DNA of 64,000 nt from Minisyncoccota bacterium. GTDB taxonomy: Bacteria; Patescibacteriota; Minisyncoccia; Phycocordibacterales; UBA9973. The translations under genes were made by a program, and so were the position numbers. Below the pieces are notes generated by a model, which searched no databases, had not been told where the DNA came from, and saw only the letters and a program-made list of their open reading frames with translations. The DNA lies in the NCBI GenBank assembly GCA_041662205.1, contig JBAZSZ010000001.1:159107-223106 (forward strand), written 5' to 3'. This document shows, piece by piece, positions 4,596 through 29,315 of this stretch; position 1 is the stretch's first letter; every line of letters begins with the position of its first letter.

Positions 4596-5453
4596 ATGAA
4601 ACTTAGTAAAGGGTTCTATCTCACCTTTGGAGCTGCATTTTTCTGGGCATTAGGTATTATTACAACAAAATTTATTTTTCTCAGGGGAGAAAATGTGTTT
4701 AATTTCACTTTTTGGGTAATTATTTTCGCCACCCCTTTTTGGATATTTATTTTATCTAGAAATTTTGGTGAATTAAAAAAAATTACCAAACAAGATTATA
4801 TCTTATTACTTAGTATCGGTTTGATTAGTATGGTTCTTCTCAACATAGTAGATTTTTTTGCAATAAAATACAGTCAGGCCATAAATTATTCCTTTTTAAT
4901 TAGAACCAGTATTATTTTTACCATATTCTTCTCTTTTATTTTTTTAGGAGAAAAAATTACTCTAAAAAAGATTATTTTAGCTACTATGATTTTGATAGGC
5001 GCTTTTTTCCTCACAACTAAGGGTCAAAAAATAATTTTAACAACAGGGGATATATTGACTCTAATAGACGCCGCTCTCGTTTCTTTCGGAAATACGATAT
5101 TAGGGAAAATTGCTGTAAAAAGGATGAGTTCAGGGTTGAGCGCCTCAGTCAGTTTTTTAGTTGGAGTATTACCCATAACAATAATTGTTTTATATCTTCA
5201 TAAATTAGAAATACCGCATTCAATATACTTAATAATTCTAGCTGCAATTTTTTCTACAGTTGGAACCCTTTTCAGATTTAAGGCATATCAAAACGCCACA
5301 GCTTCTTATGTGGCTATGGTTTATTCATTTACACCTGTTATTGTCTTTATTTTAGCTGTTACTTTTTTAAAAGAATCTGTAACCTACTTACAACTTCTTG
5401 GAGGAACTTTAATAGTATTATCCGGTGTGCTTGTTGAGAAATTGAAAATGTAA
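4596..5453 (+). CDS. EamA/DMT-family transporter
   Basis: About 10 predicted TM helices and two EamA-like halves. Confidence 0.7.
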   Translation: MKLSKGFYLTFGAAFFWALGIITTKFIFLRGENVFNFTFWVIIFATPFWIFILSRNFGELKKITKQDYILLLSIGLISMVLLNIVDFFAIKYSQAINYSFLIRTSIIFTIFFSFIFLGEKITLKKIILATMILIGAFFLTTKGQKIILTTGDILTLIDAALVSFGNTILGKIAVKRMSSGLSASVSFLVGVLPITIIVLYLHKLEIPHSIYLIILAAIFSTVGTLFRFKAYQNATASYVAMVYSFTPVIVFILAVTFLKESVTYLQLLGGTLIVLSGVLVEKLKM

Positions 5454-15676: not shown

Positions 15677-17041
15677 ATGACGAAGAAGACAGTCGTAACT
15701 TTTTTTGTTTCTATAATTATTTTTACGTTAGTTTTTTCATCATTTTTTGCGCAAAAAGCAAAGGCTGCTTTTGATTGTTTGACTCTAGTGGCATCCTCTA
15801 GTCAGTCTGATAAAGATTATTGTAGAAATGAATTAACCCAAATAGAAGCAGAACTTGCAAACCTGATAAATAAACAGAAAGAGCAACAAAAAGCTACAGG
15901 TACGCTGAAGGGTGATGTCGCCTTCCTGACTGCAGAGATCAACGCTTTGAAAACAAAAATAAAAGCTCGAGCGCTCGCTATCACTAAACTCAAAATAGAT
16001 ATTAAAGAAAAAGTTAGTACCATTAATTCTCTTTCTAGCAAGATCGCTCGCGAACATGCTTCGCTTTCTCAATTACTTAGAAATACTGATGAATTTGACA
16101 GTCAAAATTCATTAATTTTCTTATTATCTGATAATAGTATTTCAGATTTTTATAGTGATTTAGAATCTTATAATTCAATCAAAAAAGCTGTAAAAGATTC
16201 CGTTGATATTATCAATGGAGTGAAAACTCAAACTGAAGTCGAAAAGCAGAGCTTGGAAAAAAAACAAGATGCTGAGACGGATGCCAAAGCGGAACTAGAG
16301 AGTGCACAAAAAAGTACTTCTAAAGCAGAAGCAGACAAAAAACAACTTTTAGCTATTTCTAAAGATAAAGAGGCAGCTTATCAAAAACTCGCAGCTCAAA
16401 AAAAAGCTCAGGCAGACAAAATACGTGCTGCCTTATTTCCACTTGCTGGTATTTCTACCAAGATCGACTTTGGAACAGCCCTAGGTTATGCCAATGAAGT
16501 AAAAAATGCCACGGGTGTTGATCCAGCATTTTTGCTTGCTATTCTCACTCAAGAAAGCAACCTCGGAGCGAATGTCGGACAGTGTTATTTAACCAATCCT
16601 GATACTGGAGCTGGAGTAGGAAAAAATACTGGAACACCATTTTCTAATGTAATGAAACCGACGCGTGATGTACAACCGTTTTTGGATATAACTTCAGCTC
16701 TAGGTTTGAATGCATTTCAAACCGCGGTGTCTTGTCCTATTGCTGGGGTGGCAGGGTATGGTGGTGCTATGGGGCCAGCCCAATTTATTCCTTCGACTTG
16801 GAAATTGTTTGCCACTCGTTTAAAAAATACTTTAGGTCATTTTGCTAATCCTTGGTCTCCCCGTGATTCTTTTATGGCTTCAGGAATGTACCTCACGGAC
16901 TTAGGGGCTGTGGGCACTAGCGCTAGCGCGCAAAATAAGGCTGCCTGCAAATATTACGGTTCTGGAGGCGCTACTTGTTCTTATAGTAGAAGCGTTGCGA
17001 AATTAAAAGCTACGATTCAAGCCAATATTGATTTGCTTTAA
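15677..17041 (+). CDS. Secreted coiled-coil protein with a C-terminal lytic transglycosylase (MltB/SLT-like) domain
   Basis: Signal anchor and long coiled coil. C-terminal ESNLG...GPAQFIPSTW motifs are typical of lytic murein transglycosylases. Confidence 0.7.
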   Translation: MTKKTVVTFFVSIIIFTLVFSSFFAQKAKAAFDCLTLVASSSQSDKDYCRNELTQIEAELANLINKQKEQQKATGTLKGDVAFLTAEINALKTKIKARALAITKLKIDIKEKVSTINSLSSKIAREHASLSQLLRNTDEFDSQNSLIFLLSDNSISDFYSDLESYNSIKKAVKDSVDIINGVKTQTEVEKQSLEKKQDAETDAKAELESAQKSTSKAEADKKQLLAISKDKEAAYQKLAAQKKAQADKIRAALFPLAGISTKIDFGTALGYANEVKNATGVDPAFLLAILTQESNLGANVGQCYLTNPDTGAGVGKNTGTPFSNVMKPTRDVQPFLDITSALGLNAFQTAVSCPIAGVAGYGGAMGPAQFIPSTWKLFATRLKNTLGHFANPWSPRDSFMASGMYLTDLGAVGTSASAQNKAACKYYGSGGATCSYSRSVAKLKATIQANIDLL

Positions 17042-17070
17042 AATAAAAATCGTGATAATCTGTACAAGTT

Positions 17071-17295
17071 ATGAAAAAAGATATTCATCCAAAATATGAT
17101 TTAAAAACAAAAGCCACCTGTGCTTGCGGAGCTGTCTTTGAAGTCGGTTCTACTATGCCAGCCATTGCAATGGAAATCTGCAGTCAGTGCCATCCTTTCT
17201 ATACAGGAAATGAAAAAATAATGGACACCGCAGGACGTGTAGAACGTTTCAAAAAGCGAGCGGCTGCTACTACTAAAACGAAAGTTAAAAAATAA
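17071..17295 (+). CDS. rpmE: Ribosomal protein L31 (zinc-binding type)
   Basis: MKKDIHPKY start with a CxxC...CxxCH zinc-binding pattern. Confidence 0.9.
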
Positions 17296-17429
17296 CAAAA
17301 CAAACTTGTTGCAGGCGTACTTTTTAGAATGCCTTGCGCAGGCTGACGAGCCGAGCAGTTCGCTGGGCTAGCAAGCCCAGATAGATTGCATTATAAAAAG
17401 TATGCCAAGAAAGAGTTTGTTTTGTTATT
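17291..17429. repeat. GC-rich palindromic intergenic element, copy R2 (core 17331-17386), flanked by perfect 16-bp inverted repeats
   Basis: aataacaaaacaaact ... agtttgttttgttatt flank a core that is the reverse complement of R1, with a covarying internal hairpin. Confidence 0.6.
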
Positions 17430-17435
17430 AACCTT

Positions 17436-18416
17436 ATGCCTTTAGACTTAGAAGAACTTAAAAAGAATCACAATACTAGCTACTTGGCTGGTGAGTTAGA
17501 ACGCTTGGCGCGTGAGGAAGCCGAAGTGCGGGAAATGCTCGATAGTGATGAAAGTCTGCATGAAATGGCTGCCAAGGAACTTAAATTTATACAAGAAGAA
17601 AAAGAAAGAATAGAGAAACAGGTACAAGATATTCTTAAAAAAGAAGAAGAGCAAGATAGAGAGGCGAATGAATCACCAAATGAAATAGTGCTGGAGGTGC
17701 GGGCAGGAGCAGGCGGGGACGAAGCTTCACTTTTTGCTTGGGAGCTCGCGCATATGTATGAAAAATTCTCTGAAATACAAGGCTGGCAATGGAGGGTAAA
17801 TTATGAATCTAAAAGTGATTTGAATGGCTACAAAGAAGCGAGTTTTGAAATAAAAGGCAAAGACGTTTTTAAAAAGCTTCGCTATGAGACAGGTGTGCAT
17901 CGAGTGCAGAGAATCCCAGCGACTGAGAAAAATGGCCGAGTGCATACTTCTACTGCTTCTGTGGCAGTACTTCCGATTAGGAAAAAAGTAAATTTTCAAA
18001 TTAATCCAGCTGATTTTGATATGGAATATTCCCGTTCTGGAGGAAAGGGCGGGCAGAATGTGAACAAGGTGGAGACGGCGGTGCGTATTATTCACAAGCC
18101 GACGGGCCTAGATGTGCGTTCCACCAATGAGCGAAGCCAGCTTGCGAATCGGGAAAAAGCGATGATGATTTTGACAGCGAAGCTTCAACAACTAGAAGAA
18201 GAAAAAGAGGCGAGCAAGCATGCTGGTATTCGTAAGGGCCAAATAGGTACTGGTGATCGTTCCGAAAAGATTCGTACTTATAATTTCTCTCAAGACCGTG
18301 TGACGGATCACCGTATCAAGAAATCTTGGCATAATTTACCAAAAATTCTAGAAGGGGGAATAGAGGATATCATTGAATCTATTGAATCTGGCGCAGTGGG
18401 GGATGAGGAAGAGTAA
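17436..18416 (+). CDS. prfA: Peptide chain release factor 1
   Basis: GGQ motif and a PAT (PxT) codon-recognition motif, which marks RF1 rather than RF2. Confidence 0.85.
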   Translation: MPLDLEELKKNHNTSYLAGELERLAREEAEVREMLDSDESLHEMAAKELKFIQEEKERIEKQVQDILKKEEEQDREANESPNEIVLEVRAGAGGDEASLFAWELAHMYEKFSEIQGWQWRVNYESKSDLNGYKEASFEIKGKDVFKKLRYETGVHRVQRIPATEKNGRVHTSTASVAVLPIRKKVNFQINPADFDMEYSRSGGKGGQNVNKVETAVRIIHKPTGLDVRSTNERSQLANREKAMMILTAKLQQLEEEKEASKHAGIRKGQIGTGDRSEKIRTYNFSQDRVTDHRIKKSWHNLPKILEGGIEDIIESIESGAVGDEEE

Positions 18417-18427
18417 TCCAACTTTAC

Positions 18428-18572
18428 AACTGTGAATTACGAAACTTTTTCTTGGCACAGGTTTTCTGTCAGCACACATAAAAATCTACTGATTTTTTGC
18501 TATGCTCGGCGCGCCCGCCTGCGCAATGCTTCCAGAAAACTGCGCCTGCGACAAGTTTCATAATTCACAGTT
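18428..18572. repeat. Inverted-repeat-bounded element with a GC-rich core (R5, related to R1/R2)
   Basis: 18-bp terminal inverted repeats aactgtgaattacgaaac / gtttcataattcacagtt. The core ctcggcgcgcccgcctgcgcaatgc resembles the R1 sequence ctcggctcgtcagcctgcgcaaggc. Confidence 0.5.
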
Positions 18573-18697
18573 CACAAGAAATTGCTTTTGGTTTTAGATG
18601 TGGTATGATTATCAGGTAGAATCTCATCTAGCGAAATAGAGTTTCTACGTTTATAAATAGTTTTTGCCCGATTTTTTAAAACGGGAGAAATATAAGT

Positions 18698-19021
18698 ATG
18701 GCTACAAAGCTATATGTAGGGGGACTCCCTTACAGCACTCAAGAGGATGCTCTTAAAGAGCTCTTCGCACAAGCTGGAAACGTTGTTTCTGCTGTGATTA
18801 TCATGGACAAAATGTCTGGTCGTTCAAAAGGTTTTGGTTTCGTAGAAATGTCATCTCAGGATGAAGCTGGAAAAGCTATTTCTATGTTTAATGATCAAGA
18901 ATTTGAAGGACGAAAACTTACTGTCAACGAAGCTCGCCCTATGGAAGCTCGTCCACCACGTTCAAACGGCGGTGATCGAGGAGGATACGGCAACAATGGA
19001 GGTGGACGCCGAGAATATTAA
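18698..19021 (+). CDS. RRM-domain RNA-binding protein with a Gly-rich tail
   Basis: RNP2 (LYVGGL) and RNP1 (KGFGFVEM) motifs; C-terminal RGG/Gly-rich tail. Confidence 0.8.
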   Translation: MATKLYVGGLPYSTQEDALKELFAQAGNVVSAVIIMDKMSGRSKGFGFVEMSSQDEAGKAISMFNDQEFEGRKLTVNEARPMEARPPRSNGGDRGGYGNNGGGRREY

Positions 19022-19046
19022 TTCTTTTTCTTTTACCTTAAAAACA

Positions 19047-19075
19047 AAAAACCACCGTTATAGGTGGTTTTTTGT
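19047..19075 (+). terminator. Rho-independent terminator
   Basis: accacc-gttata-ggtggt hairpin followed by TTTTTT. Confidence 0.6.
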
Positions 19076-19110
19076 TTGCTCAACTTTTTAAACATAACTT
19101 TTTCCGGTAC

Positions 19111-19158
19111 GGATTTTTTGAAGCTTAAAAAATCCTGAAGTTCTCGGCTCGTCAGCCT
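19111..19158. repeat. 25-bp near-perfect palindrome (ggattttttgaagcttaaaaaatcc) followed by a partial copy of the R-family core (ctcggctcgtcagcct)
   Basis: Seen directly; the 16-nt core segment is identical to part of R1. Confidence 0.4.
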
Positions 19159-19228
19159 CGAAACCCCTCAAAAGTTATGTCCTAAAAAGTTTGCTGAAGT
19201 TAAGATATTTTGTTATAGTTTTTTTATT

Positions 19229-19244
19229 GAGCGTGTAGTTCAGT
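19229..19244 (+). pseudogene. 16-nt 5' fragment of a tRNA-Ile-like gene (GAGCGTGTAGTTCAGT)
   Basis: Identical to the first 16 nt of the 5' half at 19284. Confidence 0.4.
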
Positions 19245-19283
19245 ATAGGATGCTACGGGGATGATGTTAAAAAAATAATATAT

Positions 19284-19318
19284 GAGCGTGTAGTTCAGTG
19301 GTAGAACGCTGTCCTGAT
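19284..19318 (+). pseudogene. 5' half (acceptor through anticodon loop) of a second tRNA-Ile-like gene
   Basis: GAGCGTG-TA-GTTCAGTGGTAGAAC-G-CTGTC-CTGATA. Positions 8-37 are identical to the intact tRNA-Ile. Its acceptor strand pairs with the 3' fragment at 19485-19519. Confidence 0.5.
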
Positions 19319-19366
19319 ATAACGAATACAATATAAACGGTTCGCTCGCCGATTATAAAAACAAAT

Positions 19367-19438
19367 GTGTCTGTAGTTCAGTGGTAGAACGCTGTCCTGA
19401 TAAGACAGAGGTCGAAGGTCCGATTCCTTCCAGACACA
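19367..19438 (+). tRNA. tRNA-Ile (anticodon GAU)
   Basis: Complete cloverleaf: acceptor GTGTCTG/CAGACAC, anticodon loop CTGATAA, T-arm GAAGG-TCCGATT-CCTTC. 72 nt, no CCA encoded. Confidence 0.85.
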
Positions 19439-19484
19439 CATGAAATACATTTATTTTTTACATACAGCTCACTGCCGTTTATAA

Positions 19485-19519
19485 GACAGAGGTCGATGGT
19501 CTGATTCCATCCACGCTCA
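19485..19519 (+). pseudogene. 3' half (anticodon-stem 3' strand through acceptor) of the second tRNA-Ile-like gene
   Basis: GACAG-AGGTC-GATGG-TCTGATT-CCATC-CACGCTC-A. Its acceptor strand is complementary to the GAGCGTG of the upstream 5' fragments. The T-stem differs from the intact gene by compensatory changes. Confidence 0.5.
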
Positions 19520-19593
19520 CTTGTATAAATTTCGGAGTTACTTTTGAAATAAAAAAGGGTGAAATTTTATCAAAAATATGGTATAATGAATGT

Positions 19594-20613
19594 ATGTTAA
19601 AGATAGAACTAATTAAAAAAATTGAAGAAAAACGAGGTTCCAAAGTTATTTCTTATATTACTAGCGATAGGCAAGGCCCTGTTGGTGCTAGGGTAGCAAT
19701 GGATATTATTCCTATTATTAGTGAACAACTTCGTAAAATTGGAAAGGTAAATAAAATCGATCTTTTCCTTTATACGGCGGGGGGAGATACGATGGTTCCT
19801 TGGCGTTTAGTTTCTATGATTCGTGAATATTGTGATACTTTTTCTGTGCTTGTGCCTTATAAGGCCCATAGTGCAGGAACAATGATTGCTCTAGGCGCAG
19901 ATGAAATATTGATGAGCGACTTGTCAGAAATTTCTCCTATTGATCCTTCTACAGCAAATGTCTTTAACCCCACAGATCCAGCTAATCCACAAAATAAAAT
20001 TCCTATCTCAGTGGAAGATGTTATTGCTTATTTTGATTTAGCAAAAAATAAATTTGGAATAAAGAGCGATGAAGACTTAACAAAAGTTTTTAATAAATTT
20101 GTTGAATCAAATCCACAAATTCATCCTCTCGCTCTTGGCAACGTAAATCGTATACACAATCTTATTCGTTTGATTGCAAAGCGTTTACTCAAGAGTCACA
20201 AAGATCCAATGAAAGAAGAGCAGATAGAAAAAGTTGTTGAATTTTTTACTGAAAAACTTTATTCGCACACATATTTTATTGGAAGGAAAGAAGCCAAAGA
20301 AGAATTGGGAGTTAAATCAGTTACAGAAGCAGACGCTGCACTTTCAGACCTCATGTCTCAACTTTACTTTGAATATGTTAAAGAAATGGAATTACAGAAC
20401 AACGTTTGGAATCCTCAAAACGAGCTTGGAGCAAACGCAAGTCAAAATGTAAAAGAATACAAAGTAGCTTTTGTAGAAAGTGCCATTCTTTCAAAAGTAT
20501 ATCAATTAACAATGGAATTCAAGCGCCACCAGGGTATAGTAGCTCAACCCAACGGCGCGCAAGTATCTCAAGAACAAGTCGCAATTAGAATAGTGGAACA
20601 AGGGTGGAAATAA
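19594..20613 (+). CDS. ClpP-fold serine protease of the SDH/S49-like family
   Basis: The pattern ITSDRQGPVG...LFLYTAGGD...YKAHSAGTMIALGADEILM resembles Clp/SppA-class serine proteases. First gene of an operon that is tightly spaced with mod/res. Confidence 0.5.
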   Translation: MLKIELIKKIEEKRGSKVISYITSDRQGPVGARVAMDIIPIISEQLRKIGKVNKIDLFLYTAGGDTMVPWRLVSMIREYCDTFSVLVPYKAHSAGTMIALGADEILMSDLSEISPIDPSTANVFNPTDPANPQNKIPISVEDVIAYFDLAKNKFGIKSDEDLTKVFNKFVESNPQIHPLALGNVNRIHNLIRLIAKRLLKSHKDPMKEEQIEKVVEFFTEKLYSHTYFIGRKEAKEELGVKSVTEADAALSDLMSQLYFEYVKEMELQNNVWNPQNELGANASQNVKEYKVAFVESAILSKVYQLTMEFKRHQGIVAQPNGAQVSQEQVAIRIVEQGWK

Positions 20614-20614
20614 A

Positions 20615-21007
20615 ATGGAAAAAAATATTTATATTGATTTTACTCATATTTGCGAAAATGTTATCGATGCTAAAAATGGGAACTTAAGTCTCATAAACAT
20701 TTTTAACCAAATAACCTCATCCAATTTTCCAGCAGTTTATTCGCAAATGTATGTTGTAGTTGGTGGACGCGGAATAAAAGGAGAGTATCCAGTAAGTATA
20801 AAAATTGAAAACAAAACTACCGGCAAAATTGTTGTTCGTGAACAGGTACTACCAAATAAGATTATAATTCCCGAAGATACAGGAGAAGGGAGACTTTATA
20901 TTAAATTTTCTCCCTTAATTTTAGAGACAGAAGGAAAATATGAAATTATGCTTTCCATAGAAGGAGAATCGAAAAACTTATTTTTTGATGTAAAATCTTC
21001 TAAATAA
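20615..21007 (+). CDS. Hypothetical protein (130 aa)
   Basis: Begins 2 nt after the preceding stop; beta-rich, no recognisable motif. Confidence 0.4.
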   Translation: MEKNIYIDFTHICENVIDAKNGNLSLINIFNQITSSNFPAVYSQMYVVVGGRGIKGEYPVSIKIENKTTGKIVVREQVLPNKIIIPEDTGEGRLYIKFSPLILETEGKYEIMLSIEGESKNLFFDVKSSK

Positions 21008-21011
21008 AGTT

Positions 21012-21605
21012 ATGTCCGAACAGAATACACAAATTGAAGAGGTAGAGAGTAGTCGTATAAAAACAGGAACCCAGAAAGGTACAGTGGAAGAGACCAAGGT
21101 TAATTTTAATCAGGATGAAGCTTGGACGCTTCTAGATAATAGAACAAAAAACTTAGAAAAAACTGCCGATAGGGTAGAAAAAAGAATAGATAAAGTAGAA
21201 GATAAAATAAGGGACTCAAATCTTAACACCATTGAAACCCTGGCTATTTTTGTAGCTCTTTTTACTTTTGTTTCCATAGAATTTCAAATTTTCCGATCAT
21301 TTTCTTCATGGGAAGCAGCTGCGAGTTTATCCTTAATTTTATTAGGCACCCTAACATTTTTTGTTGTGTTGATAGTTTCTCTTATCGACAAAAAATTTAA
21401 CCCCTCTATGTTTTTGAAATGTATGATTGGATTAACAATATTGGGTGGTGTTGCTCTTTTTGGACAATCAAAAATAATTGATTCTGATTATATTTTAAAG
21501 CAAGAGTTAGAAGAAAATTTTTACACCCAACACCAAACTGATAGTCAGTGGACTGATTTTAAAACCTGTATATGGTATAGAGGATTGAATAATTGTTTGA
21601 AATAA
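21012..21605 (+). CDS. Hypothetical coiled-coil protein with 2-3 C-terminal TM helices
   Basis: Begins 5 nt after the preceding stop; N-terminal coiled coil followed by hydrophobic helices. Confidence 0.4.
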   Translation: MSEQNTQIEEVESSRIKTGTQKGTVEETKVNFNQDEAWTLLDNRTKNLEKTADRVEKRIDKVEDKIRDSNLNTIETLAIFVALFTFVSIEFQIFRSFSSWEAAASLSLILLGTLTFFVVLIVSLIDKKFNPSMFLKCMIGLTILGGVALFGQSKIIDSDYILKQELEENFYTQHQTDSQWTDFKTCIWYRGLNNCLK

Positions 21606-21609
21606 TGAC

Positions 21610-23151
21610 ATGCCATCTTTAAACTGGATTGGAAAAGATAAGATTGAGAATCACGACAAAGATGTCGCTTTTCGACTTTTAAAAAAGAATGAGAAGTTGT
21701 CGCTAGGAAAAAGTAGTGAGAATTTGATTGTGGAAGGAGATAACCTCGAGGCATTAAAAGCGTTGATGCCTCATTATGCCGGAAAAGTAAAATGTATTTA
21801 CATTGATCCTCCTTACAACACTGGTAATGAGGGGTGGGTTTATAATGACAAAGTGAATTCTCCTAAAATAAAGGAATGGCTAGGGAGAGCGGTGGGACCA
21901 GAAGGAGAGGATTTAACTCGGCACGATAAATGGCTTTGTATGATGTATCCACGTTTGAAATTATTACGCGACCTACTTCGAGACGATGGTGTGATTTTTA
22001 TTTCCATAGATGATAATGAGCAACATAATCTTAGATTTATCATGGATGAGCTTTTTGGAGAAGAAAATTTTGTGACAAACATTATTTGGCAAAAATCCTT
22101 CTCCCCTATTAATTTAAGGAAAAATTTTTCTAGTAATCATGACTTCATAATCGTATATGCAAGGAATAGAGTTAATTTGAATTTAAATTTATTAGTTCGA
22201 GGAAAAGAAAACAATGAAAGATATAAAAATCTAGACAATGATCCGAGAGGTGCTTGGACATCAAGTGATTTAACTGTGGGACCAATAATTAGAGAAAAAC
22301 TTTATAAAGTTGTTTCTCCTAGTGGAAAAATATTTATTCCTCCGTCAGGACGATGTTGGGTTGTTACAAAAGAAAGATTTGAAGAGTATCAAAAAGAAAA
22401 AAGAATTTGGTGGGGAGAAAAAGGTGATAATATGCCTAGGCAAAAAAGATTTCTTTCGGAAGTGCAACAAGGTATTGTGCCCATGACTATATGGACACAT
22501 CAAGAAGTTGGGCATAACCAGGAAGCAAAGCAAGAGATAAAACAAATACTCAAACAAGAGGTTCCTTTTGAAACTCCCAAACCAACTCGTTTGCTTAAAA
22601 GAATTTTTCAACTTGCAACAAAAGAAAACGACCTAGTCATGGATTCTTTCGTTGGTTCTGGTACAACTGGACAAGCAGTTTTAGAGTTAAATAAAGAAGA
22701 TGGAGGCAATCGCAAGTTTATTTTAGTTGAGTTGGAAGAAAAAATTGCCCGTAAAATTACACAGGAAAGGGTACGTAGAGTAGCAGAGAAAATAGGTGGG
22801 GATTTTGAGTATGTAGCGCTGGGTGATGCACTTTTTGAAAGTTCTGGCGCAATTAATCCAAAAGTGAGTTTTAAAGACCTTGCTTCTTATATTTATTTCA
22901 CGGAAACCCACACCAACATTAATCCAAAGAAAATAAAAGGTAATTTTATTGGCGAATATAATGGACAGGAGTTTTACCTATTATTTAAAGACAAGGATAA
23001 AAACATTTTTAATAGGTCCACTCTTTCCAAGATAGGAAAATCAAAATTGTCTAAAATTGTATATGCAGACAAGTGTTTATTGGACCAAGACATACTTAAC
23101 AAGTGGGGGATCATTTTTAAACAAATTCCTTATTCAGTAAAAACATATTAG
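21610..23151 (+). CDS. mod: Type III restriction-modification methyltransferase (Mod, N6-adenine)
   Basis: DPPY motif (IYIDPPYNTGNEGW) and an FxGxG-like AdoMet region. Immediately followed by res. Confidence 0.85.
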   Translation: MPSLNWIGKDKIENHDKDVAFRLLKKNEKLSLGKSSENLIVEGDNLEALKALMPHYAGKVKCIYIDPPYNTGNEGWVYNDKVNSPKIKEWLGRAVGPEGEDLTRHDKWLCMMYPRLKLLRDLLRDDGVIFISIDDNEQHNLRFIMDELFGEENFVTNIIWQKSFSPINLRKNFSSNHDFIIVYARNRVNLNLNLLVRGKENNERYKNLDNDPRGAWTSSDLTVGPIIREKLYKVVSPSGKIFIPPSGRCWVVTKERFEEYQKEKRIWWGEKGDNMPRQKRFLSEVQQGIVPMTIWTHQEVGHNQEAKQEIKQILKQEVPFETPKPTRLLKRIFQLATKENDLVMDSFVGSGTTGQAVLELNKEDGGNRKFILVELEEKIARKITQERVRRVAEKIGGDFEYVALGDALFESSGAINPKVSFKDLASYIYFTETHTNINPKKIKGNFIGEYNGQEFYLLFKDKDKNIFNRSTLSKIGKSKLSKIVYADKCLLDQDILNKWGIIFKQIPYSVKTY

Positions 23152-23153
23152 TT

Positions 23154-25439
23154 ATGGAACTAAAACGATATCAAAAAGAGGTTATAGATAAGTTTGAGCT
23201 ATTTTTGAAAACGGCAAAATCAATACCGAATAAAAATCAGGCAGCCGCTTTTGCTTTCATGTCTTTAACAAAGGTGCCCTACAAAGAACTCCCAGATGAG
23301 CTCGCTGAGACACCTTTTCTCTGTGTGCAAGTCCCGACAGGAGGCGGAAAAACTTTCATTGCTTCACATATTATAGACAGTGCATATACTCATTTCGAAA
23401 AAACTCAACAAAAGAACGATACGGGCTTAGTTTTGTGGCTTGTGCCTAGCGATGCCATAAGAACTCAGACGCTTCAAAAATTACGAGACAAAAATGATCC
23501 AGTTCGTGAAGTGCTCGATGAACGCTTTAATAATAAAGTTGTAGTTTTAGATATTTTAGAAGCTAGAAGTATTAAGAAAAGTGATATAAGCGAAAACATA
23601 ACTATTGTTGTGGCTACTTTTGCTTCATTTAAAAGGGAAGAAACAGAAGGATTAAAAGTTTTTCAAAATAATGGAGCTTTAATGACTCACTTTGAGAATC
23701 AAACTGAAGATGAAAATCAAAAATATTCTGTGATAGAGGTTATAAAAAAAAATACTCCGTTAGTTATCGTCGACGAAGGGCACAATGCACAAACAAGCCT
23801 TTCCCTCGATATGTTTAAGGATTTAAATCCCTGTATGATTGTAGAATTTACCGCGACACCAAGAAGCTTGAGTAATGTTTTTGTTTCTGTTCCAGCGACT
23901 GAGTTGAAAATGGAGCACATGATTAAGATGCCTATTTTCCTAGAAACCAAGACGATTTGGCAAGATGCTATAAAATTAGCTTATGAAAAAAGGAACGAGT
24001 TAGAAAAAATTTCCCAAAAGCAAACGAAAGATTCCTATATTCGCCCTATTTTGCTTATCCAGGCCGAACAAGAAATTGAATCTCCCACCAGGATATATGT
24101 AGGTAAAGTTCTTGAATATCTTGAACAAGAATTAAAGATTGATCGTAATGAGATAGCTATTCGAACCGGGAAGCAGAATGAAATTGAAAATAAAAACCTT
24201 TTTAGCTTAGAAGTAAAGATTAGATATATCATAACAGTGGATGCATTAAAAGAAGGCTGGGACTGTTCATTTGCATATGTTCTTGCATCAGTGAAGAACC
24301 TTGGGGCTCCCGTTGCTGTAAAGCAATTAATTGGTCGTATACTCCGGTCTCCCTATGCGATCGAACATAAATTTAAAGAGTTCAATCAGGCCTATGTATA
24401 TGCTAGCGCTCCCAATTTTCAAGATGCTGCAAGGTTAGTTATAGATGGTTTGAAAGCAAATGGATACGATATAGATCCAACTAATTTAAATAAAAAAACT
24501 ATTAATACTATAAAAACTGAATATTCCAGAAATAAAAAAGGTGAAGTGAAGCTGCCGTTAATAGCTTTTAATGCCGAAGGCGAGATAAGAGAGCTAGATT
24601 ATAGCGCCGACTTGATTGGAGATGTCTCTATTCTTAATAAGATAAATCCTACAATTGACCTGAGTGGGAGGGAAGATACAGGGGTCGCTCTGATTGATAT
24701 TAATACGAAAGGAGATTTGGTTCGGGAGCAAGCAGAAAATTCATATTCAACAAACGCAGACGTAGAATTTTCCATAGAACAATTAGTTGAATGGTTATTA
24801 AAAAAAATTAGTCGGTCTTTTCTCTCTCTTACAGACATAGAAGAATTTATAGTTAAAGCCGTGAAGTTGCTGATTCCCAAAAAGATTTCTATAAATAATG
24901 CTAACCGAAAACGCTACCTTTTGCTCGAAAGAATCAATGAACTAGTTGATGGGATAGTTAATGAACATACCTATAAACAATTTTTTCAATTTTTAAAAAG
25001 CAAACATATTCTTACGAATTCTAAAGTTGCGTGGGAGGTCGGTAATAAAATTGAATATAATCAAATTATTTCAGGGATAATCTACAATAAACATATTTTT
25101 ACAGGTGTGGGACAGATGAACACTGAAGAACAAAAACTTGCTGATGTAATTAATAGTATCGAATCTGTGGAATGGTGGTTGCGAAATCCTGAACAAAACG
25201 GTTTTTATATACAAGGATGGATGGGTAATAAATTTCGTCCCGATTTTATCGTAAAAACACAAAAAGGAAATTACTTTGTTCTCGAGTATAAAGGTGATCA
25301 ATTGGTGACAAATGATGACAGTAAATACAAAAAAGAATTAGGAGATGTATGGACAAAAATTGCAGGAGAAAAATATCATTTTGAAATGGTGGAAAAAAAT
25401 GAAATAAATTCAATAGCTCAGTTGATTTTAAAAAATTAG
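23154..25439 (+). CDS. res: Type III restriction endonuclease Res subunit (SF2 helicase plus C-terminal PD-(D/E)xK domain)
   Basis: Walker A (VPTGGGKTF), DEGH box (VIVDEGHNAQ) and a C-terminal EYKGD nuclease motif. Begins 3 nt after mod. Confidence 0.85.
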   Translation: MELKRYQKEVIDKFELFLKTAKSIPNKNQAAAFAFMSLTKVPYKELPDELAETPFLCVQVPTGGGKTFIASHIIDSAYTHFEKTQQKNDTGLVLWLVPSDAIRTQTLQKLRDKNDPVREVLDERFNNKVVVLDILEARSIKKSDISENITIVVATFASFKREETEGLKVFQNNGALMTHFENQTEDENQKYSVIEVIKKNTPLVIVDEGHNAQTSLSLDMFKDLNPCMIVEFTATPRSLSNVFVSVPATELKMEHMIKMPIFLETKTIWQDAIKLAYEKRNELEKISQKQTKDSYIRPILLIQAEQEIESPTRIYVGKVLEYLEQELKIDRNEIAIRTGKQNEIENKNLFSLEVKIRYIITVDALKEGWDCSFAYVLASVKNLGAPVAVKQLIGRILRSPYAIEHKFKEFNQAYVYASAPNFQDAARLVIDGLKANGYDIDPTNLNKKTINTIKTEYSRNKKGEVKLPLIAFNAEGEIRELDYSADLIGDVSILNKINPTIDLSGREDTGVALIDINTKGDLVREQAENSYSTNADVEFSIEQLVEWLLKKISRSFLSLTDIEEFIVKAVKLLIPKKISINNANRKRYLLLERINELVDGIVNEHTYKQFFQFLKSKHILTNSKVAWEVGNKIEYNQIISGIIYNKHIFTGVGQMNTEEQKLADVINSIESVEWWLRNPEQNGFYIQGWMGNKFRPDFIVKTQKGNYFVLEYKGDQLVTNDDSKYKKELGDVWTKIAGEKYHFEMVEKNEINSIAQLILKN

Positions 25440-25492
25440 AAAAAGTATATTTGCGAGAAGCTTTTAGCGGGGAATTGGTGTAAAATATAAAT

Positions 25493-26434
25493 ATGTCACT
25501 TTTTAAAAAACAAAATGGAAATATAAGCCTAGTAAAAGAAAAGCTTTTTGCATTAGAAAAAGAGTTACAAAGCATTACGGAACATAATATAAAGGAGATA
25601 TTTGGGTTAGAATTTGTTGCGACTGAATTTCAGCATAATGGTTTACGTATAGATACTTTGGCGTATGATTCTAGCTTGAATACTTTTGTAGTTATTGAAT
25701 ACAAGAGGGAAAAGAGCTTTAGTGTGATTGATCAGGGTTTTGCTTATCTTTCGCTTATTTTAAACAATCAAGCAGAATTTGTTTTGGAGTTTAATAAAAA
25801 ATTTCAAGAGAAAAAAGGGAAAGCAGATTTCGATTGGTCTCAAATGAGAGTCCTGTTTTTGACTAGATCGTTTACAGTTCACCAATTGGAAGCAATTAAC
25901 TTTAGGGATTTACCTATTGAGTTATGGGAAGTGACCCGTTATGAAGGGGATCTTATTCAGTATTCACAAACCAAGCGTTCCGGAGCCAAGGCCTCTATCG
26001 AGACCCTCGGTATTTCAAATAGCGAAGTGCGTAAAATTTCAAAAGAGGTAAGAACTTATTCTGAAGAGGAATATTTAAACAATAAGCCAAATGGAAATGG
26101 TAGAAAGTTCTATGAAAAAATTAAAGAAAAAGTCGCAGTTATTGATTCTAATATTGTTATAAACCCAACTAAATCCTATATATCATTTCAGTGGCCAAAT
26201 AATTGGCGCAATATATTTTATTGTCACGTATCGGGTAACAAAATTCGTTTAGACTTTACAAGGAGTGAACCTAAGGATTTCAAAGATCCTGAAAAGAAAG
26301 TTTTTTACAACGAAAGTAGTATGAAATACTACAAACAGCACATATCATCTATCGAGATAAATAATGAAAAAGAACTTGAGTACTCAGTTTATATAATCCA
26401 ACAAGCCTACGAAAGATTCCAAAAAGAAAACTAA
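25493..26434 (+). CDS. NucS/DUF91-like PD-(D/E)xK nuclease-domain protein
   Basis: N-terminal GLRIDTLAYD...FVVIEYKREK is a RecB/NucS-like D...ExK motif; the C-terminal half is of unknown function. Confidence 0.5.
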   Translation: MSLFKKQNGNISLVKEKLFALEKELQSITEHNIKEIFGLEFVATEFQHNGLRIDTLAYDSSLNTFVVIEYKREKSFSVIDQGFAYLSLILNNQAEFVLEFNKKFQEKKGKADFDWSQMRVLFLTRSFTVHQLEAINFRDLPIELWEVTRYEGDLIQYSQTKRSGAKASIETLGISNSEVRKISKEVRTYSEEEYLNNKPNGNGRKFYEKIKEKVAVIDSNIVINPTKSYISFQWPNNWRNIFYCHVSGNKIRLDFTRSEPKDFKDPEKKVFYNESSMKYYKQHISSIEINNEKELEYSVYIIQQAYERFQKEN

Positions 26435-26497
26435 TATCCAAAGGAGGCGAAGCTCACGAAACTTTAGCAAGAGTTGTAAAAAGGTTAAAATAAACCG

Positions 26498-26674
26498 ATG
26501 CAAAAAGGAAAAAAAGCAAAAGCAAAAGCAAAAGATAAAGATTTTAAAGATGATGATTGTGAAATATGCAAACTTATGAGAAATGGAAATCCAACCCCTG
26601 AGGCTTTAGAAAAAGCTTTTAACTTGCAGAATTTTTTAAATAATTTTCCAAAAGATAAGGGCAAGAAGAAATAA
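26498..26674 (+). CDS. Possible small Lys-rich protein (58 aa), not in the ORF track
   Basis: ATG-initiated ORF (MQKGKKAKAKAKDKD...). Its 3' end is one copy of the 42-bp direct repeat. Weak RBS. Confidence 0.3.
   Translation: MQKGKKAKAKAKDKDFKDDDCEICKLMRNGNPTPEALEKAFNLQNFLNNFPKDKGKKK
26630..26671 (+). repeat. Direct repeat, copy 1 (aattttttaaataattttccaaaagataagggcaagaagaaa)
   Basis: Differs at 3 of 42 positions from copy 2 at 27133-27174. Together the two copies bracket the TspO gene. Confidence 0.6.
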
Positions 26675-26696
26675 TTTAAAATGATATAATAAAATT

Positions 26697-27128
26697 ATGA
26701 ACAACACTTACTCTTGGTATTCGCAATTAATAAAACCTACTTGGGCTCCACCAAGCTGGCTCTTTGGTCCGGTGTGGACTTTTCTTTATGTTTTGATTGC
26801 TGTGTCATTCGGAAAAGTATTTTGGATGGCATGGCAAAAACAGATTACGCTTCTCGTTGCCTTACCTTTTTTATTGAATCTAATTTTTAATTTTGCTTTT
26901 ACTCCTTTACAATTTGGATTACAAAATAATTTTTTAGCAGCAGTAGATATTCTTTTAGTTTTAGGAACTCTCATCTGGGGTATGATTGCGATATACTTTG
27001 CCTCGCAGGAGCTTGTAAGCGTAGGAGGGTCTAGTATAATGTGGATTGTTTATATTCAAATTCCTTATCTTCTCTGGGTATCATTTGCGACTATTCTGCA
27101 ATTAACTGTCACTTTTTTAAATAGGTAA
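26697..27128 (+). CDS. tspO: TspO/MBR (tryptophan-rich sensory protein) family
   Basis: N-terminal YSQLIKPTWAPPSWLFGPVWTFLY is the TspO signature; five TM helices. Confidence 0.75.
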   Translation: MNNTYSWYSQLIKPTWAPPSWLFGPVWTFLYVLIAVSFGKVFWMAWQKQITLLVALPFLLNLIFNFAFTPLQFGLQNNFLAAVDILLVLGTLIWGMIAIYFASQELVSVGGSSIMWIVYIQIPYLLWVSFATILQLTVTFLNR

Positions 27129-27132
27129 TTTT

Positions 27133-27174
27133 AATTTTTTAAATAATTTTCCAAAAGATCAGGGTAAGAAGAAA
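27133..27174 (+). repeat. Direct repeat, copy 2
   Basis: See copy 1. Confidence 0.6.
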
Positions 27175-27361
27175 AAAAATTAGATAATAATGAAGTTGGA
27201 TTAAATATTCAAAAATAGATAAGGATGGATTATGAGAAAGGGAGCAGGGGAACTTCAAGAGCTTTTTGTTGAAACTGGATTAGATAATATGGTTGACAGA
27301 ATAAATAAATCATGATATAAAAAAGGCAGATCGAGCCTTGCTCATTTTTAAATTTAAATTC

Positions 27362-27385
27362 AAAAAAATAAAAAAAAGGGGGGGG
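27362..27385 (+). promoter_or_regulatory. A7-T-A8-G8 homopolymeric tract forming the RBS of the downstream gene (candidate phase-variation site)
   Basis: caaaaaaataaaaaaaaggggggggatatATG: the G8 run sits where the Shine-Dalgarno would be, 5 nt before the ATG at 27390. Confidence 0.4.
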
Positions 27386-27389
27386 ATAT

Positions 27390-27956
27390 ATGCGCACGAA
27401 TCTCATTGAGTCCTATATTGATATGCTTCAAAAGTCTTTAGGGCTTATTAAGCCACCAGTTGAAGAAGAAAAGTTGCGTGATCTATACGACTCAAGAAAC
27501 TTCGGTGGTATGGTCAGCCATATCCAAGAAACCTTGAGACTAGACATGAAAATCCGTTTGGGCTACGTAAGCAAAGGTGGACCAAAAGATGCACCAGCAT
27601 GGGTGGAAAGACCAATTGATATGCCGTTTTACAATTCCTCAGAATTTCGACAGACCACTGTAGTAGTGTATCTCCGAAAAACATTCCTACGAAATGGCAA
27701 TTTTGAGGAAGCAGTATTGGCTATTTCTCATGAACTTAGCCATATAGTTCTCGATGCTATTAAGCATCCTTTGAGAATGCATGAAATAGCAGTCGATTTA
27801 ACTGCTATGTTGCTTGGGTTCAGAGATTTTTACGTGACAGGTTGCCAAACAGCAGAACCTAGCATCTCTGGCAATCCTTATGAGATTAGATCTATAGGTT
27901 ATCTGACACCCGAAGAAGTAAGTCATGCGGCCAAATACATGACTTTCAGAAAGTAA
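27390..27956 (+). CDS. Hypothetical protein with an HExxH (HELSH) zinc-metallopeptidase-like motif
   Basis: AISHELSHIVLD...HPLRMHE. More G/C-rich than the context. No adjacent HTH partner was seen. Confidence 0.4.
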   Translation: MRTNLIESYIDMLQKSLGLIKPPVEEEKLRDLYDSRNFGGMVSHIQETLRLDMKIRLGYVSKGGPKDAPAWVERPIDMPFYNSSEFRQTTVVVYLRKTFLRNGNFEEAVLAISHELSHIVLDAIKHPLRMHEIAVDLTAMLLGFRDFYVTGCQTAEPSISGNPYEIRSIGYLTPEEVSHAAKYMTFRK

Positions 27957-28058
27957 ATATCAAGCCGTGAGAATGTCCGCAAGACGTTCCGCGGCTTTCT
28001 CATTTGTACATAAGGTCAATTTGCGTATAAAGTATTAAAGATCTATAATTTCATTATT

Positions 28059-28454
28059 ATGACTATGGAAAATGGAAAACCGGAGGGAGAAAAAGGGTCA
28101 ATTTTAGGTAAAGTTTTTAAAAGTGAAGGCTTACTAAATGCAGAAGCTAGGGCGAGCTCATTGATTGAAAGAGCTAGATTAAATGAAGCTATTAGGGTGA
28201 TAGAAGATCTAGAAGCAGAAGTAAGAGACATGAAGATATCAGATAGGTTTAGTAGGACAGCAAAACCCTCTGAGAGTGTGTACAGTTCTCTCGGTGGTGG
28301 AATGAATGCTGCATTATTAAAAGGTTTAACAGAAGATGAATACAAAAGACAAGTTTTATTAATAAATTTAAGATCAATAAGGGAAAGTATAGATTCTACT
28401 ATTGGAGGTATGGAAAGAGTAATTTTAGATATCGAGGCAACAAAACAGGAATAA
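28059..28454 (+). CDS. Hypothetical coiled-coil protein (131 aa)
   Basis: ORF with a plausible start; no recognisable motif. Confidence 0.4.
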   Translation: MTMENGKPEGEKGSILGKVFKSEGLLNAEARASSLIERARLNEAIRVIEDLEAEVRDMKISDRFSRTAKPSESVYSSLGGGMNAALLKGLTEDEYKRQVLLINLRSIRESIDSTIGGMERVILDIEATKQE

Positions 28455-28665
28455 TCTTACGTAAAGGATAGAACTGATTCAAATTTTTTTGTTATATTAA
28501 AATAGTTTTTTTACTCCTATTATTTATAATGTTTGATTAAAAATTATGCCAGTCAGATAGAGGACTGGCACTCTTGAGCCGAAGTCTCAGACTCTTTTTT
28601 TCAGATGAGGACACTTTATCCTCTTACATCTCTCAGCCTTGCGGGCAGTGAGACGAAAACCTTTT

Positions 28666-28836
28666 TTACTGCATCTGTATCTCATTCGCATCTCCTAATG
28701 AATCAGTAATTTCACTACAAGGTGGGCAAACTATTTCGTTTGCTCGCCCTTCATTAATCAAACGCAGTTCATCTTTACTGGGTGTTTGCCATTTTTCTCT
28801 TATTTGTACCTGGTGACAAACTACACAAAAGTCCAT
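28666..28836 (-). CDS. Small zinc-ribbon protein (56 aa; CxxC...CPPC), not in the ORF track
   Basis: Minus-strand ORF MDFCVVCHQVQIREKW...IVCPPCSEITD, with a strong Shine-Dalgarno (AAGGAGGTG) 7 nt upstream of the ATG. Confidence 0.5.
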   Translation of the reverse strand: MDFCVVCHQVQIREKWQTPSKDELRLINEGRANEIVCPPCSEITDSLGDANEIQMQ

Positions 28837-29057
28837 ATTATCACCTCCTTTCGAAGAACCTAGATTTGTTTAGAATTTATCATATTTTTTATAATTTACA
28901 AGCCTTATTTCTAAATTGGGCATAAATTTGCATCCTAATCTTCTTTATATTATTATAAGAGAAAGCCACGAGGCTTTTTGTTTTTACTTGTCCCGTACTA
29001 AATTTTTGATTACGGCACATAAGGATAAAGATTATTATTTAAAATTTTAGTACTGGG

Positions 29058-29315
29058 ATGAATGAAGAAAAAAAGAATTTTAACGAGGGTCCTTGGTGGA
29101 AACCAGCGATGGAGATATTAAGCGAGGTTTCGACTTGGATTGTCGTGCCTATCGTTTTAGCATTGGTTTTCGGTAAAATGCTCGATACGCATTATGGGAC
29201 AAAGCCAATTATTTTTTTAGTGTTTGCCGGATTTGGATTTTTAGTTACTTGTTTTGGTATGTATCGAGTTGTGAAGAATTATATTAAAAAATTACAGGAG
29301 ATAGGGAAGAAATAA
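29058..29315 (+). CDS. atpZ: AtpZ/AtpI-like small membrane protein preceding the atp operon
   Basis: 85 aa with two TM helices; position and pattern match the ATPase_gene1 family. Confidence 0.55.
   Translation: MNEEKKNFNEGPWWKPAMEILSEVSTWIVVPIVLALVFGKMLDTHYGTKPIIFLVFAGFGFLVTCFGMYRVVKNYIKKLQEIGKK

Follow-up and report, generated by a model that had tools for sequence, protein, structure and literature searches.

Organisation of the locus

Within a 64,000-nucleotide stretch of contig JBAZSZ010000001.1 from a Minisyncoccota bacterium (the window, meaning the whole stretch that was analysed), an intact tRNA-Ile(GAU) gene is flanked by the 5' and 3' halves of another tRNA-Ile(GAU) gene (Table 1). 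The inner tRNA is referred to as c, or Y, the outer halves as b and d, which together make up a tRNA called X, and the two spacers that separate c from the halves as s1 and s2. The inner gene is called as tRNA-Ile(gat) by ARAGORN and matches the Rfam family RF00005 over its full length at 72.6 bits (E = 2.8e-15), which is above the gathering score of 29 bits and identifies it as a tRNA. In its intron mode, ARAGORN reported the inner gene alone at the locus and no outer tRNA. Half b is identical to c from position 8 to position 37 with no mismatch, the acceptor strands of b (GAGCGTG) and d (CACGCTC) are perfect complements, and the T-stems of c and d differ by a compensated pair (GAAGG/CCTTC versus GATGG/CCATC), with further differences in the T-loop and acceptor. 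An independent Logan assembly (L181) starts within c, breaking exactly at the repeat, and is base-for-base equal to the window through the 3' part of c, s2, d and the adjoining island genes. The allele of the window is also present in the sequencing run SRR18595301.

ARAGORN, Rfam and L181 thereby bear out an earlier note on this DNA, which had described an intact tRNA-Ile(GAU) between the halves of another, with b and c identical over positions 8-37, perfectly pairing outer acceptor strands and a compensatory T-stem change. The layout given in that note also stands, although the 5' half is 36 nt (19284-19319) rather than 35 nt, the 3' half begins at 19484 and the spacers are of 47 and 45 nt.

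The sequence between A37 and A38 of X amounts to 164 nt, of which 72 are tRNA and about 92 are not. The direct repeats of b and c are 83 nt apart and those of c and d 81 nt apart, whilst the P1 strands of the two spacers form a 9-bp inverted repeat. Homology of the 3' half to the inner tRNA starts at 19481, so that the trinucleotide ATA is repeated at both junctions and the insertion site is ambiguous over 34/35 to 37/38. A 37-nt pattern describing the 3' half occurs once in the window and in none of 100 shuffles. Nothing convincing in the way of a promoter or terminator was found on the + strand inside the insert.

Table 1. Features of the nested tRNA-Ile locus and the adjoining island, in window positions
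Feature	Position	Strand	Remarks
Fragment a	19229-19244	+	GAGCGTGTAGTTCAGT; 16-nt copy of the 5' end of tRNA-Ile X (acceptor strand and start of D-arm)
Outer 5' half, b	19284-19319	+	36 nt, G1-A37 of tRNA-Ile(GAU) X; acceptor GAGCGTG, D-arm, 5' anticodon stem, loop CTGATA
Spacer s1, left cassette arm	19320-19366	+	47 nt; opens with T and a short junction segment
s1, P1 5' strand	19332-19340	+	TATAAACGG
s1, bubble motif A	19341-19348	+	TTCGCTCG
s1, P2 5' strand	19349-19366	+	
Inner tRNA-Ile(GAU), c (Y)	19367-19438	+	Intact; acceptor GTGTCTG/CAGACAC; T-arm GAAGG TCCGATT CCTTC
Spacer s2, right cassette arm	19439-19483	+	45 nt; from the minimum-free-energy fold pairing s1 with s2, the inverted repeat and the L181 copy
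s2, P2 3' strand	19448-19458	+	T-rich
s2, bubble motif B	19468-19474	+	CTCACTG
s2, P1 3' strand	19475-19483	+	CCGTTTATA; adjoins A38
Outer 3' half, d	19484-19519	+	Positions 38-73 of X: GACAG, AGGTC, GATGG TCTGATT CCATC, CACGCTC, A; no CCA after
Accessory island	19520 to ~27990	+	~8.5 kb, directly 3' of d; absent from L001 and L123
Island genes (Pfam)	19594-27956		SDH-type ClpP-like protease, DUF6941, membrane protein, N6/N4 methylase and ResIII helicase (type III restriction-modification-like), DUF5655, TspO
Island protein of 188 amino acids			HELSH motif (HExxH)

The interrupted gene and its intact relatives

Three contigs with an identical RRM protein (L001, L002 and L004), together with a further relative (L123), carry a single intact tRNA-Ile, X, at the same locus. 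The gene order in L001 and L123 is contiguous, running from the RRM gene through the tRNA-Ile and a gene for a protein of 126 or 131 amino acids to the atp operon. The intact X of these relatives, GAGCGTG...GATGG TTCGATC CCATC CACGCTC A, combines the acceptor of b with the T-stem of d, and half b equals the X of L001 and L123 over its full length. Since the relatives carry X intact at the locus, the native gene is X (b plus d), into which the 164 nt that separate A37 from A38 were inserted. Y, whose acceptor and T-stem differ from those of X, looks foreign inside the split gene. The suggestion of the earlier note that a segment of about 165 bp carrying a tRNA had been inserted into the anticodon loop of a sister gene is thus upheld by the intact X of L001, L002, L004 and L123, as well as by the recurrence of the insert described below. 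Two tandem tRNA genes were looked for in the related genomes and not seen, the relatives carrying one ordinary gene.

Some 39 nt upstream of half b, the 17-nt stretch 19228-19244, which takes in fragment a, is an exact repeat of 19283-19299, the start of b. The upstream block that holds this fragment, TAGTTCAGTATAGGA.G.TACGGGG.TGA, also precedes the intact X in L001, L002, L004 and L123. Fragment a, which the earlier note had listed with the nested halves as a 16-nt 5' fragment, is therefore an older relic, separate from the cassette event.

Recurrence of the insert across lineages

A genome set was defined by an exact 30-mer of the shared tRNA-Ile core, which is found in at least 119 species genomes (L005-L123). 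All but one of the 119 listed are named as Patescibacteria or candidate phyla radiation (CPR), or are unclassified and consistent with that placement, the exception being a short contig binned as Bacteroidales; the named members are mostly Paceibacterota, Nomurabacteria and Parcubacteria. The nested architecture, in the order 5' half, s1, intact tRNA-Ile, s2 and 3' half, or a one-sided version of it, is present in at least 14 of these 119 (L010, L014, L021, L030, L036, L040, L046, L047, L069, L075, L084, L094, L109 and L113). When metagenomes were scanned with the 21-mer of the junction, GGTAGAACGCTGTCCTGATAT, 34 loci came up, 33 of them nested, from about 22 further lineages, which brings the insert family to a total of about 35 related uncultured lineages. 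Insert size ranges over about 110-190 bp. Segments homologous to s1 of the window (TAAC..TACAATATAAAnGGTTCGCTCG) occur in L124, L127, L130, L131 and L132, and one-sided forms with only the 5' side are seen in L126/L155 and L136. The number of copies of the unit made up of 5' half and s1, or of s2 and 3' half, varies among near-identical strains (L134, L140, L142, L148 and L157).

In four lineages (L046, L094, L128/L153 and L137), the unit that carries the tRNA is succeeded, at the same junction, by an 'empty' one whose arms are the same but which lacks a tRNA. A covariance model of the hairpin formed by the arms (R1) gave six full copies in the 763 kb searched, all of them at or no more than 4 kb from a tRNA-Ile: the L069 nest, the empty units of L046 and L094, orphans at L069:4154 and L094:497, and a hairpin in L025. 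No second full copy was found with this model in the 64-kb window. The orphans (L069 4154-4219 and L094 497-564) have the conserved bubble and are intergenic, lying 1-4 kb from the tRNA-Ile and not within a tRNA. The L025 hairpin, at (-) 4131-4200, is an empty member of the same family directly 5' of the tRNA-Ile; its closing stem is made by the 5' acceptor strand of that tRNA together with a copy, lying upstream, of the 3' acceptor strand, a variant for which any model of the family must allow. The existence of empty and orphan hairpins means that the module is more than a tRNA-processing device.

The nested tRNA-Ile lies 0.8-1.5 kb downstream of a 16S rRNA gene in some lineages (L137 1-1286, 2076-2620; L046 7833-7910) and beside the atp operon in the clade of the window. 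Since the neighbourhood differs between clades, the cassette follows the tRNA and not its surroundings. No phage carrier emerged from three scans of viral contigs or from a BLAST search of phage records, the matches being due to chance or to generic tRNAs.

The hairpin formed by the arms

The s1 and s2 arms are homologous across lineages and pair into a long hairpin that has the tRNA at its tip. At the base is the stem P1, in which ATATAA and about four variable bases of s1 pair with their complement just before AAGACAG in s2; the variable pairs are ACGG/CCGT, GTGG/CCAC, CTGG/CCAG, AAGG/CCTT, ACTC/GAGT, TTGC/GCAA and AGTC/GACT. An internal bubble (GGTTCGCTCG / CTCGCTGCC) is conserved across lineages while the stems covary freely. 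Here motif A, (GG)TTCGCTCG, lies opposite motif B, CTCGCTG(CC), and the bubble is composed of a short G-C run broken by pyrimidine-pyrimidine mismatches, with a YCGCU core that reads 5' to 3' on both strands. A long stem, P2, which is often AAAATGAAAATAAA / TTTATTTTCATTTT, continues up to the tRNA, and a small hairpin, P0, straddles the left junction and also covaries (ATATCG/CGATAT, ATATG/CATAT, ATATGG/CCATAT). Every copy folds to the same hairpin, and no Rfam family matches it.

Pairs of motif A and motif B at a suitable spacing number 800 in 1.09 Mb of Patescibacteria DNA; 39 of them have at least 6 of 7 flanking bases complementary, compared with about 1 expected, and 33 of those 39 are at the tRNA-Ile anticodon junction. 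An anchored alignment of 28 copies, for which the seven inner P1 pairs served as the selection, has 89% of its cells paired, compared with 64.5% in shuffles (0 of 500 reach the observed value), and pairing falls to 31-50% when the partner columns are slid. Covariation extends to pairs that were not used in the selection: 15/50 is CG in 17 copies and UA in 7, 19/46 is UA in 12, GC in 9 and CG in 5, and 20/45 exhibits four pair types. At position 12/53, G.U is present in 16 copies and A.C in none, which favours the tRNA-sense strand. The pairing supports a role for a folded single strand, and the retention of the bubble while the stems vary indicates that it is under constraint rather than a product of neutral descent.

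Other origins for the arms were considered and rejected. They do not resemble an integron attC site, since the R boxes (RYYYAAC / GTTRRRY) are not conserved among copies, and the palindrome around motif A that might have marked a tyrosine-recombinase core site in s1 is confined to the window copy. Self-duplication of a leader-tRNA-trailer segment into its own loop fails because s1 and s2 are unlike the sequences flanking the outer halves (L131). A fold-back, or hairpin-primed, inverted duplication does not apply either, as d contains the T-arm and not the reverse complement of the D-arm, and the bubble is non-complementary.

Site of insertion

Two lineages have nests in which the tRNA types are mixed. 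In L021, a canonical-type tRNA-Ile, with a GCTCAGGTGGTTAGAGC D-arm and a different anticodon stem, lies inside Patescibacteria-type halves. The nest of L137 is built of three levels, the outer halves being of the Patescibacteria type and both the middle halves and the intact tRNA of the canonical type; s1 and s2 of its two levels are unrelated, and there is an additional empty hairpin. The junctions in L021 and L137 are all of the form CTGATA^T ... ^AAGNNNG (^ marks the junction), and the two tRNA types have just CCTGATAAG in common. Since a tRNA-Ile of the other type is found inside with the same junctions, targeting of the anticodon loop is independent of flanking homology. In the window itself, d has the X-type T-stem and identity to the right of the junction runs to 11 nt, which is too short for homologous exchange. 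Taken together, L021 and L137, the short homology in the window and the pairs of tRNA-carrying and empty units favour the view that site-directed insertion took place repeatedly. The P1 arms are inverted repeats, the left one lying 12-20 nt inside the left end, and ATA/TA is present at both junctions in the window although not in every copy.

Decay of the outer halves

When the outer halves are joined, ARAGORN accepts them as tRNA-Ile in 13 of about 21 nests, and in the rest the 3' half is broken. Outer 3' halves have been hit by extra small hairpins in the T-arm or variable region (L021, L046, L047, L125, the L140 family and L146) or are truncated (L094, L128 and L154), and outer 5' halves are mutated in L030, L036, L040, L075 and L109. 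No inner tRNA is damaged in any nest. In the window, the T-loop of half d, TCTGATT, occurs in 0 of the 119 listed tRNA-Ile genes; relative to the common TCCGATT it represents a change of C56 to T, by which the universal C56 is gone, and half b is unchanged. As the outer halves are often broken and the inner tRNA never is, the outer gene is dispensable. The hairpin is perfectly paired even around wrecked outer halves, for instance in L109 and L075, and is therefore not kept for the splicing of the outer tRNA.

The T-loop of the inner tRNA, TCCGATT, is found in about half of the Patescibacteria tRNA-Ile(GAU) genes among the 119 matches listed. In this loop a C replaces the near-universal U55, and the other tRNAs of the window keep TTCGATT. 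The notion that it marks c as foreign or as a decoy was rejected, since it predominates in the phylum (60 of 119 loci); c is an ordinary tRNA-Ile because TCCGATT is the commonest tRNA-Ile T-loop there.

The dead outer 3' halves contain small GC-rich hairpins in or beside the T-loop (CCGCCGATTGGCGGA, CCGCCAGAGGCGGA and tandem CCCGCCCGGATGAACCCGTTCGGAC), located at L021 (-) ~7450-7500, L046 (-) ~1850-1910, L047 6590-6640, L125 ~525-545, in the 3' halves of L140/L142/L148 and at L146 ~975-1010. They point to a possible second family of tiny insertions in nest-bearing genomes. In L084, at 170-290, a complete-looking tRNA-Ile has a mismatched acceptor (GCGAGCG versus CAGACGC), and an upstream orphan 5' half, GCGTCTG, is fully complementary to the 3' strand; either the allele is chimeric, through partial recombination, or a working tRNA would arise here only from the outer 5' half and the 3' half. 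In L098, at (-) ~4840-5080, the last ~29 nt of the tRNA-Ile, from the T-loop on, are repeated with the trailer about 170 nt downstream, which is a classic T-loop-type att duplication and a different event at the same gene.

Proposed mechanism

The best reading of the locus is that of a small non-autonomous mobile 'disrupt-and-replace' cassette. With a probability of roughly 0.6, the native tRNA-Ile gene was split by a hairpin cassette that came in horizontally and provides a substitute for it, and cassettes of this family occur in about one tenth of the sampled Paceibacteria. A structured cassette of 164 nt would have entered the DNA of the anticodon loop of X after A37 and inactivated the gene, so that the outer halves would be relics of X and Y the functional, and probably the sole functional, tRNA-Ile(GAU) gene. 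Y is presumably transcribed from the old X promoter and freed by RNase P and RNase Z. The stem between leader and trailer may prevent the halves of the inner tRNA from mispairing with the identical outer halves, and could also give a double-strand-specific processing site ahead of RNase P and RNase Z.

The family probably moves among Patescibacteria (class Paceibacteria / Parcubacteria), entering the same spot of whichever tRNA-Ile(GAU) resides in the host. Each insertion would recreate its own target and allow re-invasion, which could build up nests in the manner of Russian dolls. The movement is likely to depend on a trans-acting enzyme, candidates being a nuclease or transposase that acts on a folded single strand, or an insertion at the RNA level followed by reverse transcription. 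Much more tentative is the suggestion that these are members of a new class of element: a hairpin cassette of about 100-190 nt with no protein that homes to position 37/38 of tRNA-Ile(GAU), survives by virtue of the replacement tRNA at its tip, and is moved either by a structure-specific enzyme that works on the single strand in its folded form or by way of an RNA intermediate (entry into an anticodon loop that has been cleaved, and then reverse transcription), yielding nests of a tRNA within a tRNA within a tRNA.

If the disrupt-and-replace reading is true, the strategy of disrupting an essential tRNA and bringing one's own would be extended from prophages to a gene-less element of about 165 bp, and the horizontal replacement of single-copy tRNA genes in minimal genomes would be explained. 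The origin of tRNA introns and split tRNAs from mobile insertions would likewise become testable in bacteria. The two-fold symmetric bubble with its freely covarying stems represents a new structured motif and a handle for finding the protein that recognises it. There is also a consequence for annotation, as tRNA finders give the inner gene only, and both the nests and the dead native gene are missed in about one tenth of Paceibacteria genomes.

A number of observations weigh against the cassette interpretation. The invariance of the bubble is in part imposed by the search pattern. Outside position 12/53, G.U is seen 10 times and A.C 12 times over all the other pairs, and the energies of the whole hairpin favour neither strand. 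Left junctions vary in the genome set, falling after G34 in L010 and after A35 in L040, L075 and L084. The inner and outer tRNAs of many nests share an acceptor stem, which fits local re-insertion or gene conversion and fits a local duplicative origin equally well. The varying number of units in near-identical strains would be accounted for by plain unequal crossing-over, and some multi-level nests could have formed in that way without re-invasion. The empty hairpins and the two orphans reveal that the hairpin has a separate existence beyond what the model provides for. The cassette was not found outside the tRNA-Ile gene as a free donor form, nor in the viral contigs and phage records, and no candidate for a mobilising enzyme lies near the locus in the window. 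Finally, transformation and homologous recombination by way of the ultra-conserved tRNA core, without a dedicated enzyme, could be behind most copies.

Alternative explanations

The last of these points can be developed into an explanation with no dedicated mobility at all, which is considered unlikely. One or a few accidents of illegitimate replication or recombination, such as template switching at hairpins or a tandem triplication followed by decay, would have spread, and varied in copy number, through nothing but natural transformation, homologous recombination, unequal crossing-over and arm-to-arm gene conversion. The tRNA-Ile core, 30-40 nt of which are identical in more than 119 species, is a usable homology arm, and the differing numbers of half-plus-spacer units in near-identical strains, the one-sided forms, which are expected products of recombination between direct repeats, and the frequent identity of inner and outer tRNAs all agree with such a history. 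Complementarity of the arms could, moreover, persist through quasi-palindrome template switching and not through selection. Homology cannot, however, have targeted the canonical-type cassettes of L137 and L021 into Patescibacteria-type halves with CCTGATAAG alone in common, nor does the right-hand crossover in the window, with its 11 nt of identity, offer much for it to act on. The conserved bubble among stems that are free to vary also speaks against this explanation, as do the paired tRNA-carrying and empty units of four lineages, which look like repeated targeting.

An account at the RNA level is likewise improbable. According to this, the outer tRNA is a gene with a 164-nt intron at 37/38 that carries a second tRNA, and one transcript would yield both tRNAs, with a dimeric endonuclease recognising the hairpin and its two-fold symmetric bubble, and the exons being joined by a ligase, for example RtcB; alternatively, reverse insertion into a cleaved tRNA would have been followed by reverse transcription. 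Patescibacteria are unusually rich in tRNA and rRNA introns (PMC13011429, PMC11270868). The position is that of the protein-spliced introns of archaea and eukaryotes, the spliced product of b and d is recognisable as tRNA-Ile, and the YCGCU core on both strands of the bubble is what a dimeric enzyme would be expected to require. The covariation resembles that of an RNA helix, with the conserved sense-strand G.U at 12/53, and the P0 hairpin at the 5' junction covaries too. Against this stands the state of the exons: about one third of the outer 3' halves are destroyed and several 5' halves mutated around an intact hairpin, and the universal C56 has been lost from the outer T-loop in the window. 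Outside one position, G.U is no more frequent than A.C. Inspection of the junctions did not permit a bulge-helix-bulge to be drawn: the canonical register (32-35 versus the intron's 3' end) forms no pairs, the 5' junction lies inside P0 and the 3' junction at the base of P1. To our knowledge there is no bacterial tRNA-splicing endonuclease, which also counts against an intron.

A self-splicing intron was rejected as well. Rfam gave no match to an intron of group I or to a small ribozyme, either in 18000-21000 (E <= 10) or in seven related loci (E <= 1), and the ~92 nt besides the tRNA are too few for a group I core. The insert ends in ...CCGTTTAT(A), with no terminal G, and the right ends of other copies are mostly T or A.

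The earlier note had offered, as a second possibility, nested scars of site-specific recombination by a tyrosine integrase, and this now appears distinctly improbable. A phage or integrative element with a short anticodon-loop core and its own tRNA-Ile would have entered X, the 164 bp being what remains of it (attL arm, tRNA and attR arm). The anticodon loop is a known sublocation for integrase crossover, the accessory island adjoins the locus, and on inspection the 3' end of s2 resembles tRNA positions 24-37, if weakly, as the core arm of an attP might. Pfam, however, identified no integrase or recombinase in any open reading frame (ORF) over 15677-29315, covering the island and its flanks; the island lies outside the halves, no tRNA-derived repeat marks its far end, and the 3' half is not repeated elsewhere in the window. 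Deletion down to nearly the same 110-190 bp, of which the 164 bp in the window is an instance, would have been needed in each of about 35 lineages. The arms are complementary and covary, unlike att arms, the bases beside the crossover are not conserved, unlike core-type binding sites, and the junction, tRNA and arms are absent from the viral contigs and phage records scanned.

The chance of an assembly artefact, in which reads from two strains with different tRNA-Ile alleles were mis-joined, is negligible: repeats of 30-40 nt can cause such joins in metagenomes and L181 does break at the repeat, but the spacers are unique, complementary and homologous to those of dozens of independent assemblies made by different assemblers, L181 has c-s2-d exactly, and mis-joining cannot produce covarying stems.

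Relationship to known systems

Full-text literature searches returned no description of nested tRNA genes in bacteria and, as far as can be told, the feature is undescribed. Its closest parallels are partial. In the tRNA-dependent lysogeny of actinobacteriophages, a host tRNA gene that is essential and single-copy is interrupted by the prophage and left unrestored, the prophage bringing its own tRNA (Guerrero-Bustamante & Hatfull 2024, PMC10865867). The cassette is similar in that X is not reconstructed at either junction, b being followed and d preceded by non-tRNA sequence, and in that a tRNA-Ile(GAU) is brought by the insert in the window and in all related nests. Lysogeny inserts an entire prophage, which has a tyrosine integrase and an attP whose common core is 8-10 bp (PMC10865867), whereas the tRNA is the sole gene of the window insert, its ends pair with each other, its length is 164 bp (110-190 bp in the family) and neither an integrase nor a phage form was found.

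Intervening sequences (IVS) and other short ORF-less insertions in rRNA genes, including those of the CPR, are less than 200 bp long, form hairpins, have a patchy distribution with presumed horizontal spread and are common in the phylum (PMC11270868). The cassette is likewise an ORF-less, hairpin-forming insertion at the tip of a stem-loop in a structural RNA gene, in this case the anticodon loop. The comparison breaks down in that rRNA tolerates fragmentation after excision by RNase III, which a tRNA cut in its anticodon loop does not, and in that the window insert carries a replacement gene. We know of no IVS with a tRNA as cargo.

Group I introns in the tRNA anticodon loops of Patescibacteria occupy every loop position except 37/38 (Nakagawa et al. 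2026, PMC13011429). They share the phylum, the loop and a patchy distribution with the cassettes, and differ from them in that the outer exons of cassette nests decay. The insertion site is thus the sole anticodon-loop position at which that survey did not find group I introns, and the home of the protein-spliced introns of archaea and eukaryotes. With the latter, and with split and permuted tRNAs, the locus has in common a site compatible with 37/38 (CTGATA^T ... A^AGACAG, with a 3-nt ambiguity) and complementary acceptor strands, whereas the outer halves of cassette nests are often dead. Archaeal tRNA introns are thought to transpose between tRNA genes, although we know of none that has a complete tRNA of the same isotype inside.

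A further likeness is to repetitive extragenic palindrome doublets forming hairpins (REPINs), miniature inverted-repeat transposable elements (MITEs), Rickettsia palindromic elements, integron attC sites and the attP of CTX phage, with which the cassettes share a hairpin of ~70-190 nt, variable stems, a conserved unpaired bubble, a non-autonomous nature, the ability to sit inside genes and the occurrence of empty and orphan forms. Unlike palindromic repeats and attC, they are not of high copy number, lack the integron R and L boxes, have a single specific target and carry a gene at the tip of the hairpin. The window element therefore has the logic of tRNA-dependent lysogeny, the form of an IVS and the address of anticodon-loop group I introns and archaeal 37/38 introns, without having the defining features of any of them.

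The accessory island and rearrangement of the locus

The locus had also been proposed as the boundary of an accessory island, and this is confirmed by the absence of the sequence from 19520 to ~27990 in L001 and L123. The segment of the window at 19078-19520, which contains the promoter region, relic a and the tRNA, is inverted relative to the RRM gene in comparison with L001:6324-6600 and L123:6600-6880. In addition, a 21-nt copy of the region upstream of the tRNA (81% identical) is present at 28493-28513, downstream of the gene for the 131-amino acid protein. The flipped segment and this copy suggest that the block of island plus tRNA may have been inverted. Within the island, a 57-nt direct repeat (86% identical, 26630-26686 and 27133-27189) flanks the TspO gene (26697-27128), and this gene looks as though it had been inserted or duplicated separately, in the form of a small cassette.

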